Assembly: GCA_964016885.1 (NCBI GenBank)
Contig: OZ024741.1
Span: 392,770,001 to 392,834,000 of the forward strand
Direction of reading: 5' to 3'
DNA from: Eledone cirrhosa
Taxonomy: Eukaryota
Length of the DNA: 64,000 bases
Shown here: positions 47,067 through 48,215 of the stretch, piece by piece
Numbering within the stretch: position 1 is the stretch's first letter
How the letters are laid out: each line of letters opens with the position of its first letter
Notes under the pieces: model-generated
The model's input: only the letters and a program-made list of their open reading frames with translations
What the model was told of the DNA's origin: nothing
Databases searched by the model: none
Program-made: the position numbers and the translations under genes

Positions 47067-48215
47067 ATAAAAACAAATAACGAAACGAAATTAAATTTCG
47101 TTTCGTTTGTAACTCACTTTTGTATGACTGACGCTTAAACAATTAAGTTAAAAATGTACATCCACATATGTATACTGAAATACTAGTATGCATATGAATA
47201 CACACACGTATACATATGTAGATGTACCGAGTTTTTCACTGGTCACTTTACTGTGAGTGTCCAGCTATTCTGTATGTAAACACACAGACAAACCGGTTTT
47301 TAGAGTCATACTGGTTTTTGAGGAAACACCTTTCCTCTATTCTCCAGAAAGCCAGACAAGGAATATTGAGCTAGTTTCGTTGTTGTTACAACTCATCAGC
47401 AATATTTACCCATCTTCCGGCCTCTCTAGAGAATCGTAAAAGCACATATCGTTATATGCTTTTTCTATGAAAATTAGTAGTGGGCAGACTAATTTGCATA
47501 GAGCGTGAGTACGTACCGGTTCAACGGAGACGATAAAAACAAATAACGAAACGAAATTAAATTTCGTTTCGTTTGTAACTCACTTTTGTATGACTGACGC
47601 TTAAACAATTAAGTTAAAAATGTACATCCACATATGTATACTGAAATACTAGTATGCATATGAATACACACACGTATACATATGTAGATGTACCGAGTTT
47701 TTCACTGGTCACTTTACTGTGAGTGTCCAGCTATTCTGTATGTAAACACACAGACAAACCGGTTTTTAGAGTCATACTGGTTTTTGAGGAAACACCTTTC
47801 CTCTATTCTCCAGAAAGCCAGACAAGGAATATTGAACTAGTTTCGTTGTTGTTACAACTCATCAGCAATATTTACCCATCTGTGCCAATATTTACCCAAT
47901 ATTTACGATATGTGCTTTTACGATTCTCTAGAGAGGCCGGAAGATGGGTAAATATTGCTGATGAGTTGTAACAACAACGAAACTAGTTCAATATTCCTTG
48001 TCTGGCTTTCTGGAGAATAGAGGAAAGGGTTTCCTCAAAAACCAGTATGACTCTAAAAACCGGTTTGTCTGTGTGTTTACATACAGAATAGCTGGACACT
48101 CACGGTAAAGTGACCAGTGAAAAACTCGGTACATCTACATATGTATACGTGTGTGTATTCATATGCATACTAGTATTTCAGTATACATATGTGGATGTAC
48201 ATTTTTAACTTAATT
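47067..48215 (-). mobile_element. Retrozyme-like non-coding element: 1.75 tandem units of 466 bp plus an inverted partial copy, three hammerheads
   Basis: Repeat starts at 47067 and 47533. Hammerheads at 47362-47406 (minus), 47828-47872 (minus) and 47951-47995 (plus): AATATTG-CTGATGA-GTTG...CAAC-GAAA-CTAG-TT-CAATATT. Confidence 0.85.

Follow-up and report, generated by a model that had tools for sequence, protein, structure and literature searches.

The insertion at positions 47067–48215 of the window, by which we mean the whole stretch of 64,000 nucleotides of Eledone cirrhosa DNA that was analysed, is best explained as a non-LTR retrozyme insertion in which a Penelope-type enzyme copied one template from both cut strands, this template likely being a circle of 466 nt. 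We assign this explanation a probability of about 0.6. The insertion belongs to a family whose repeat is non-coding, 466 bases long and equipped with a hammerhead, and of which the genome carries at least 2,000 insertions; within this family the single locus is an ordinary copy which is probably inactive.

In the following, the unit is numbered from the base that directly follows the cut predicted for the hammerhead (position 1, at 47834 of the window), and the RNA sense corresponds to the minus strand. The insertion is flanked on the left by a (TA)n target tract at 46977–47066 (period-2 repeat detected over 46977–47069) and on the right by one at 48216–48241 (detected over 48215–48241). The main or long-end arm (47067–47881, minus strand, 815 nt) consists of unit positions 420–466, one full unit and then positions 1–302, so that its 3′ end is unit position 302 at 47067. 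The full unit of 466 nt lies between two predicted cut sites (47369–47834, minus strand). Just inside the long 3′ end there is a 13-bp hairpin (47079–47107, minus strand, unit 262–290) which is a candidate for the recognition site of the enzyme. The inverted or short-end arm (47905–48215, plus strand, 311 nt) is composed of unit positions 383–466 followed by 1–228, ends with position 228 at its 3′ side and is 99% identical to the left copy. Both arms are separated by a filler of 23 nt (47882–47904) made of short copies of the adjoining arm ends. The first-pass annotation had described a near-identical, non-coding tandem repeat, an inverted copy with a third hammerhead and (TA)n at both ends, and all of this is borne out: the direct repeat has a period of 466 with a single mismatch in 349 nt (47067–47415 versus 47533–47881), and the longest stop-free frame in the doubled unit is 60 aa. 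The tandem is indeed longer than one unit, but with 1.75 units in the main arm it does not reach two full ones.

Three hammerhead motifs are present at the locus. Hammerhead 1 (47362–47406, core 47369–47399) and hammerhead 2 (47828–47872, core 47835–47865), the latter being of type I with a predicted cut between 47835 and 47834, are on the minus strand, and hammerhead 3 (47951–47995, core 47958–47988) is on the plus strand. The motifs score 36.9, 36.0 and 30.4 bits against Rfam Hammerhead_HH9 (E-values 5.5e-7, 1e-6 and 6.5e-5); all three fall below the gathering score of 52, and the Rfam search at gathering level has zero matches at the locus. Lower-scoring miRNA matches in the Rfam search are the inverted repeats. 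The hammerhead descriptor passed only the cores 47835–47865 (minus strand) and 47958–47988 (plus strand), that is, two of the three are intact. The sole mismatch between the tandem copies, G at 47370 versus A at 47836, turns U16.1 of the left hammerhead into C, a change unique among 51 aligned full units. According to PMC3088659 no pair is more conserved than A15.1–U16.1, and its mutants are slowed at least 10-fold; judged from its sequence, hammerhead 1 is probably impaired. Accordingly, the spacing of 466 bp between two minus-strand hammerheads was correctly annotated, but the two are not both complete. The annotation had further predicted that the locus releases a circularisable RNA. As the downstream hammerhead has lost U16.1, the locus is probably unable to release a monomer and the copy is probably a product rather than a source of monomers. 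Li et al. call a retrozyme 'active' when two consecutive units carry complete hammerheads (10.64898/2026.07.22.740005); in this sense the locus fails whereas many other arrays of the family pass.

Hammerhead 2 has a helix I of 7 bp, a helix II of 4–5 bp and a helix III in which a palindromic loop is closed by only two pairs. In PMC4209133 type I hammerheads are treated whose helix III is weak, and these are alike in having a helix I of 7 bp and a helix II of 4–5 bp as well as a two-pair helix III with a short palindromic loop, a form which according to this source requires a dimer for cleavage. Those hammerheads cleave as dimers, whereas the hammerhead of the 466-nt unit is predicted from sequence with a Rfam score under the family threshold.

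The size of the family was derived from exact sequence patterns over the 3.0-Gb genome; a whole-unit DNA search, which skips common words, matches the window only. These patterns gave 5,217 matches to the 29-nt hammerhead core (one helix II variant), 2,058 long ends in which position 302 is joined to TA, 700 ends of a single short-end form, as well as 6,413 cases in which position 302 is read through into 303. The reversed control is 0 in each case, and the number of cores is far above chance. The unit has a G+C content of 36% (168/466) and codes neither for a reverse transcriptase nor for a GIY-YIG endonuclease. Full units diverge by up to about 11% and form subfamilies, and arrays reach 34 pieces. 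The insertions contain no LTR-flanked inner region, and no target-site duplication can be read because the flanks are (TA)n. The predicted fold of the unit is far better than that of shuffled sequences (z −10.7), with 67% of the bases paired as a circle. The hammerhead core is intact in 349 of 365 units; among 51 units the helix II pair is U–A in 27 and A–U in 23, and at position 17 only U or C occurs. Two-sided changes were found in 7 of 150 predicted pairs, which by this measure is not above shuffles (109/500); counted as cells over the whole structure, however, two-sided change is more frequent than in any of the 500 shuffles, a measure which relatedness inflates.

A sister family with a unit of 476 nt has the layout, the long end and the position of the hammerhead in common with the 466-nt unit. 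A two-armed copy of it, about 69% identical to the 466-nt unit and with the core variant UUGA instead of CUGA, lies in the window at 54640–55230, and it also occurs as an array of five units (L093, 401–2639). Newt satellite 2 had brought up the idea of a snRNA-type promoter, for which an octamer-like motif at unit 336–343 was a candidate. This idea is unsupported: the motif is within a hairpin stem that is kept in the sister family, and the upstream regions of four U2 copies contain neither an octamer nor a significant match to the unit (p 0.05–0.93). The genome contains a tandem U2 snRNA array with a period of 2.2 kb (G000 C3:307.35–307.45 Mb, L198–L207), the upstream regions of which are without octamer.

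The architecture of the insertions was analysed in two samples, all loci lying on contig C1 and being taken in pattern-search order, which amounts to about 145 of the 2,000 or more insertions. The first sample comprises 90 loci chosen by the long end only, with one duplicate pair; the second comprises 70 loci chosen by the short end, 16 of which overlap with the first set and three entries of which are one array. Among the long-end loci an inverted arm was called in 62 of 90, and 47 of 50 visible outer ends are at 227–234; of the 21 closed loci in which no arm was called, 8 retain a remnant of the short end. In the short-end sample the opposite ends are at 299–302 in 42 of 46 visible cases and the inverted arm is present in 54 of 66 closed loci. 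The opposite ends, which were not chosen by pattern, nearly all run into TA. There are two fixed 3′ ends, at 302 and at 227–234, and the tail between them measures 69–74 nt. The joint between the arms is head to head; of 61 such joints, 35 are gapless and 21 contain 1–10 nt. One array has two short ends (L291–L293), and foreign inserts were seen at the arm junction in L309/L184 and in L332, one being 65 nt of unrelated sequence and the other a poly(A)-like run. It had been suggested to check whether other copies are circular permutations of the unit. The inner ends do lie all round the unit, but the two fixed 3′ ends do not agree with a random permutation; the copies are tandem.

This architecture is that of Penelope insertions, for which an inverted 5′-truncated copy, a tail and a (TA)n target are described in PMC8557442, and for which the tail is explained in PMC11167929 as the stretch between two internal start sites, with 30–40 nt reported. 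As far as these two sources portray the endonuclease-positive Penelope-like insertions, the 466-nt family shares with them the 5′ truncation and the partial tandems, the inverted 5′-truncated copy at the 5′ end and the tail between internal starts, and the (TA)n or AT-rich targets with no visible target duplication. It differs from the elements of these accounts in that the unit is without reading frame, the tail is longer than usual, the arms are often several units each and no sequence match to a coding partner was found in two families and 30 GIY-YIG loci. The MRC1-type Chlamys elements of green algae are likewise non-coding, of Penelope type and inserted in multiple head-to-tail copies, but according to PMC8557442 their 3′ ends match coding partners, and canonical hammerheads are missing from most Chlamys elements. 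In the genome analysed here, the two-ended design is also present in two coding Penelope families with offsets of about 96 and 42 nt. The first-pass annotation attributed the insertion to a Penelope reverse transcriptase copying a circular template. At the level of the family the Penelope-type ends and target support part of this proposal; the circle and the enzyme are what we infer.

The nature of the template was addressed with 141 de-duplicated insertions. Those arms that reach the cut site continue past it in 160 of 177 cases, and 210 5′ ends are spread over all 16 windows of 30 nt of the unit. As the arms cross the cut site and the 5′ ends are found all round, the template was continuous across the cut, that is, either a circle or an uncut multimer. 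There is a twofold excess of 5′ ends at 463–26 (26 versus 12.8 expected), a region picked after the first sample had been seen, which is in line with a minority of the templates being cut and linear, or with pausing at the stem's base. Further 5′ ends accumulate at 207–236 (25 versus 16.6). Exactly at the cut site there is no pile-up, 3 of 143 arms ending within 4 nt with 2.3 expected. The median divergence is 0.72% across the arms, 0.82% within the same arm and 4.6% to other loci. Both arms are of a common haplotype, 50 of 54 loci being in the lowest 5%, and 19 of 24 in the second sample.

Substitutions were assigned on the RNA strand to two classes, those which all covering pieces have in common but which are rare elsewhere, and those confined to one unit; 131 of 145 loci were usable. 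Insertion-wide changes are biased to A>G (34 versus 9 T>C) and single-unit changes are not (59 versus 80; Fisher p 2e-5), the ratios in a first pass having been 23:6 and 41:56. The bias is clustered, as 9 of the 34 changes come from one locus; counted per locus it is 17 versus 7, and in the second sample alone 7 versus 3, which is not significant. Strand-biased clusters of A>G are the usual trace of A-to-I editing. In L046 three A>G changes are identical in all 19–20 covering pieces of both arms, and zero variable sites are found among its 22 pieces. In L143 two consecutive units carry an identical set of 12 A>G. Hot spots of A>G lie at unit 314–432. Marks that recur identically in every unit are the pattern expected from one edited circle. 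Nevertheless, edit marks can also be inherited from an edited source copy, as L142 and L186 share five edit-like variants. Own insertion-wide variants are present in 32 of 85 loci.

On this basis we suggest the following course of events. By analogy to related retrozymes, a tandem source would be transcribed, the hammerheads would cut the transcript, probably as dimers, and a host ligase would close the monomers. The enzyme would then cut both strands of a (TA)n tract and prime two cDNAs, at 302 and at 227–234. The fixed ends themselves are observed; that they are priming sites we infer from the work on the Anolis Penelope element. Each cDNA would pass the cut site and then continue around the unit over a variable distance, presumably by rolling on the circle. 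The far ends would thereafter be joined head to head, with mostly the 0–10 nt between them that are observed. Finally, some arrays would lengthen later by DNA duplication, as was observed in three arrays.

Growth after insertion is evident in these three long arrays: L057 has alternating units in a block pattern, L061 has a three-unit pattern in one arm, and in the 34-piece array scattered variants are common to several pieces. With such duplication at the DNA level the length of an array is no measure of the number of laps. L057, in which live and dead hammerheads alternate, had also been considered as the copy of a dimer circle, but the order of its variants fits better to a later DNA duplication of two units. 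In L061 (3068–7735) an A>G change at unit 111 is present in 6 of 12 units, in one arm only and with a period of three, which we read as local duplication, although this is not explained for certain.

The strongest competitor of a circular template shares with it the family and the type of enzyme, and holds that the template was, as for ordinary Penelope elements, a tandem transcript left uncut and made from a source array of homogeneous units, with cleavage being rare or late and no circle being needed. Such a template also predicts the read-through and the common haplotypes. It gains from the work on the Anolis Penelope protein in vitro, for which PMC11167929 describes that hammerhead cleavage is not needed, that hammerhead mutants insert undiminished and that uncut RNA is used and is the main substrate. 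The weak helix III would suit it as well, and only one of nine Xenopus retrozyme dimers is given as cleaved, eight having failed to do so (10.64898/2026.07.22.740005). Furthermore, with the sampled share of the insertions source arrays could have been missed. The editing marks speak against it, since editing of a multimer should vary by unit, whereas the A>G bias is seen in the insertion-wide and not in the single-unit changes. Also the kept hammerhead core and the covariation of helix II across subfamilies up to 11% apart count against it, and the loci with their own insertion-wide variants need a bottleneck of one unit. We consider an uncut template unlikely, though it is the alternative which deserves most weight.

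It is less probable still that the insertions started with little over one unit and became uniform arrays later, through DNA duplication and conversion in the manner of a minisatellite. A model of this kind is discussed by Li et al. 2026 (10.64898/2026.07.22.740005), and block duplications do occur in L057, L061 and L249–L250. Duplication cannot, however, account for how the cut site was first crossed, cannot give equal haplotypes on the opposite arms of short insertions and cannot give an array such as L046 without a variable site. Duplication explains the growth of arrays and not their origin. There is very little left for the reading that a coding Penelope element has the unit merely as its pLTR, or that the local structure is an artefact of the assembly, both of which are already largely refuted. 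Xenopus retrozymes are said to resemble pLTRs (10.64898/2026.07.22.740005), and the genome has many Penelope families, with 33,963 and 9,144 candidates at first look. Yet none of the 89 long-end loci passes from the unit into a same-strand Penelope frame, and the exact read-throughs of position 302 lead into more unit; a terminal repeat of a coding element, which the first-pass annotation had named as a refuting outcome, is not what the loci examined contain. Against an artefact, one period and a further 30 nt are covered by a 496-nt contig from another run, and contigs of three other runs contain the unit, which shows both the unit and the tandem joint to be present beyond this assembly; moreover, the region of the insertion has no N, the 200 N of the window all being outside of it.

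Among two Penelope families and 30 GIY-YIG loci we found no coding Penelope with the ends of the 466-nt unit. Three of the 141 insertions join the unit to coding Penelope elements of three different families, the joints having the two-arm geometry. In L245 (420–2895) the partner of a long-end retrozyme arm is a short-end arm that belongs to the 784-aa Penelope family, and L305 and L350 run on into two other families, the joint of L350 being six bases past the cut site. Two further insertions join the unit to LINE-like sequence. The Penelope chimeras fit to template switching, but as joints to three different Penelope families and to two LINE-like sequences occur, they can also be explained by later deletions in crowded TA tracts. 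L158 was rejected as a Penelope chimera, since the joined sequence reads as a piece which, going by its motifs, we take to be a LINE reverse transcriptase. Likewise, the 476-nt array before the Penelope frame of L093 is not a terminal repeat but the sister repeat in the same TA tract. Two Penelope families are young and look intact (L238–L243, L094, L105), with many copies being 97–99% identical and one family occurring in tandems of 4.7 kb. The search for a canonical hammerhead was negative in the 784-aa family, and in the other family there is one about 1.2 kb after the stop. A recurrent hammerhead family (L241 30–64, L242 5679–5713, L243 5629–5665, L094 1354–1388) is unrelated to the own ends of those Penelope elements.

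Several other elements are present in the window. At 46581–46894, near 5907/6050 and near 18891/22641, other type I hammerheads lie as inverted pairs in TA tracts, their helix II being long and their helix III AU-only; these pairs are probably the ends of further Penelope-type families. A hairpin insertion in (TA)n at 46211–46514 and 55240–55480 shows 75% similarity to the 784-aa Penelope family's 3′ region and has a hammerhead-like stretch whose core starts with CAGA. The element at 48343–49044 has direct repeats of 109 nt, 593 nt apart, which hold the GAAA half of a possible hammerhead, and is adjoined by a small TA-centred hairpin (48276–48340). A decayed Penelope coding fragment at 44313–45560 has a DNA match of 66% to the 890-aa family, and a (TA)n tract of about 5.7 kb extends over 12785–18499. 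In addition, there are fragments which from their motifs we take to be LINEs (43862–44206 and 52786–53427) and presumably a helicase-like fragment (50026–50343).

As judged from sequence, the 466-nt family files as a metazoan non-LTR retrozyme on every feature testable at the family level. In the accounts of PMC7229834, PMC7761336 and 10.64898/2026.07.22.740005, these retrozymes consist of non-coding tandem units with one type I hammerhead each, have a GC content under 50%, are highly self-paired, reach thousands of copies and share their genomes with Penelope elements, as is the case here. The length of 466 nt compares with 150–450 nt in PMC7229834 and 51–972 nt in 10.64898/2026.07.22.740005. 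These accounts propose circles as templates and Penelope as helper, and expression, cleavage and circles are reported as demonstrated for the retrozymes of coral, mussel and axolotl, and are predicted for the 466-nt family. On the other hand, two head-to-head arms, fixed ends, (TA)n targeting and insertion-wide A>G are all present in the 466-nt family and do not appear in the available text of the retrozyme accounts. In the mostly open-access literature on octopus hammerheads, Penelope twin priming and retrozyme rolling circles, we found no account of the 466-nt family or of two-armed retrozyme insertions.

Going further, the insertions might be read as DNA records of single A-to-I-edited circles, each copied repeatedly by two Penelope reverse transcriptases primed on both strands of one cut, with edited variants becoming inherited subfamilies. 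The family would then evolve like a viroid under selection on fold and ribozyme, and would borrow its enzymes from several Penelope families, which would sometimes switch template onto their mRNA at the own cut end of the retrozyme (L350). We put this wider reading forward tentatively, and regard it as doubtful in its full extent.

For the way in which animal retrozymes return into DNA, the literature, to the extent that the cited accounts present it, assumes both the helper enzyme and the circular template. The 466-nt family offers testable coordinates for this step, namely two start sites, a (TA)n target and one haplotype on both arms, and candidate enzymes are named within the same genome. 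Its editing marks are a means of telling a circle from a tandem transcript. If the circular template is true, the family would be a natural system of rolling-circle reverse transcription and a natural route by which edited circular RNA becomes inherited DNA.
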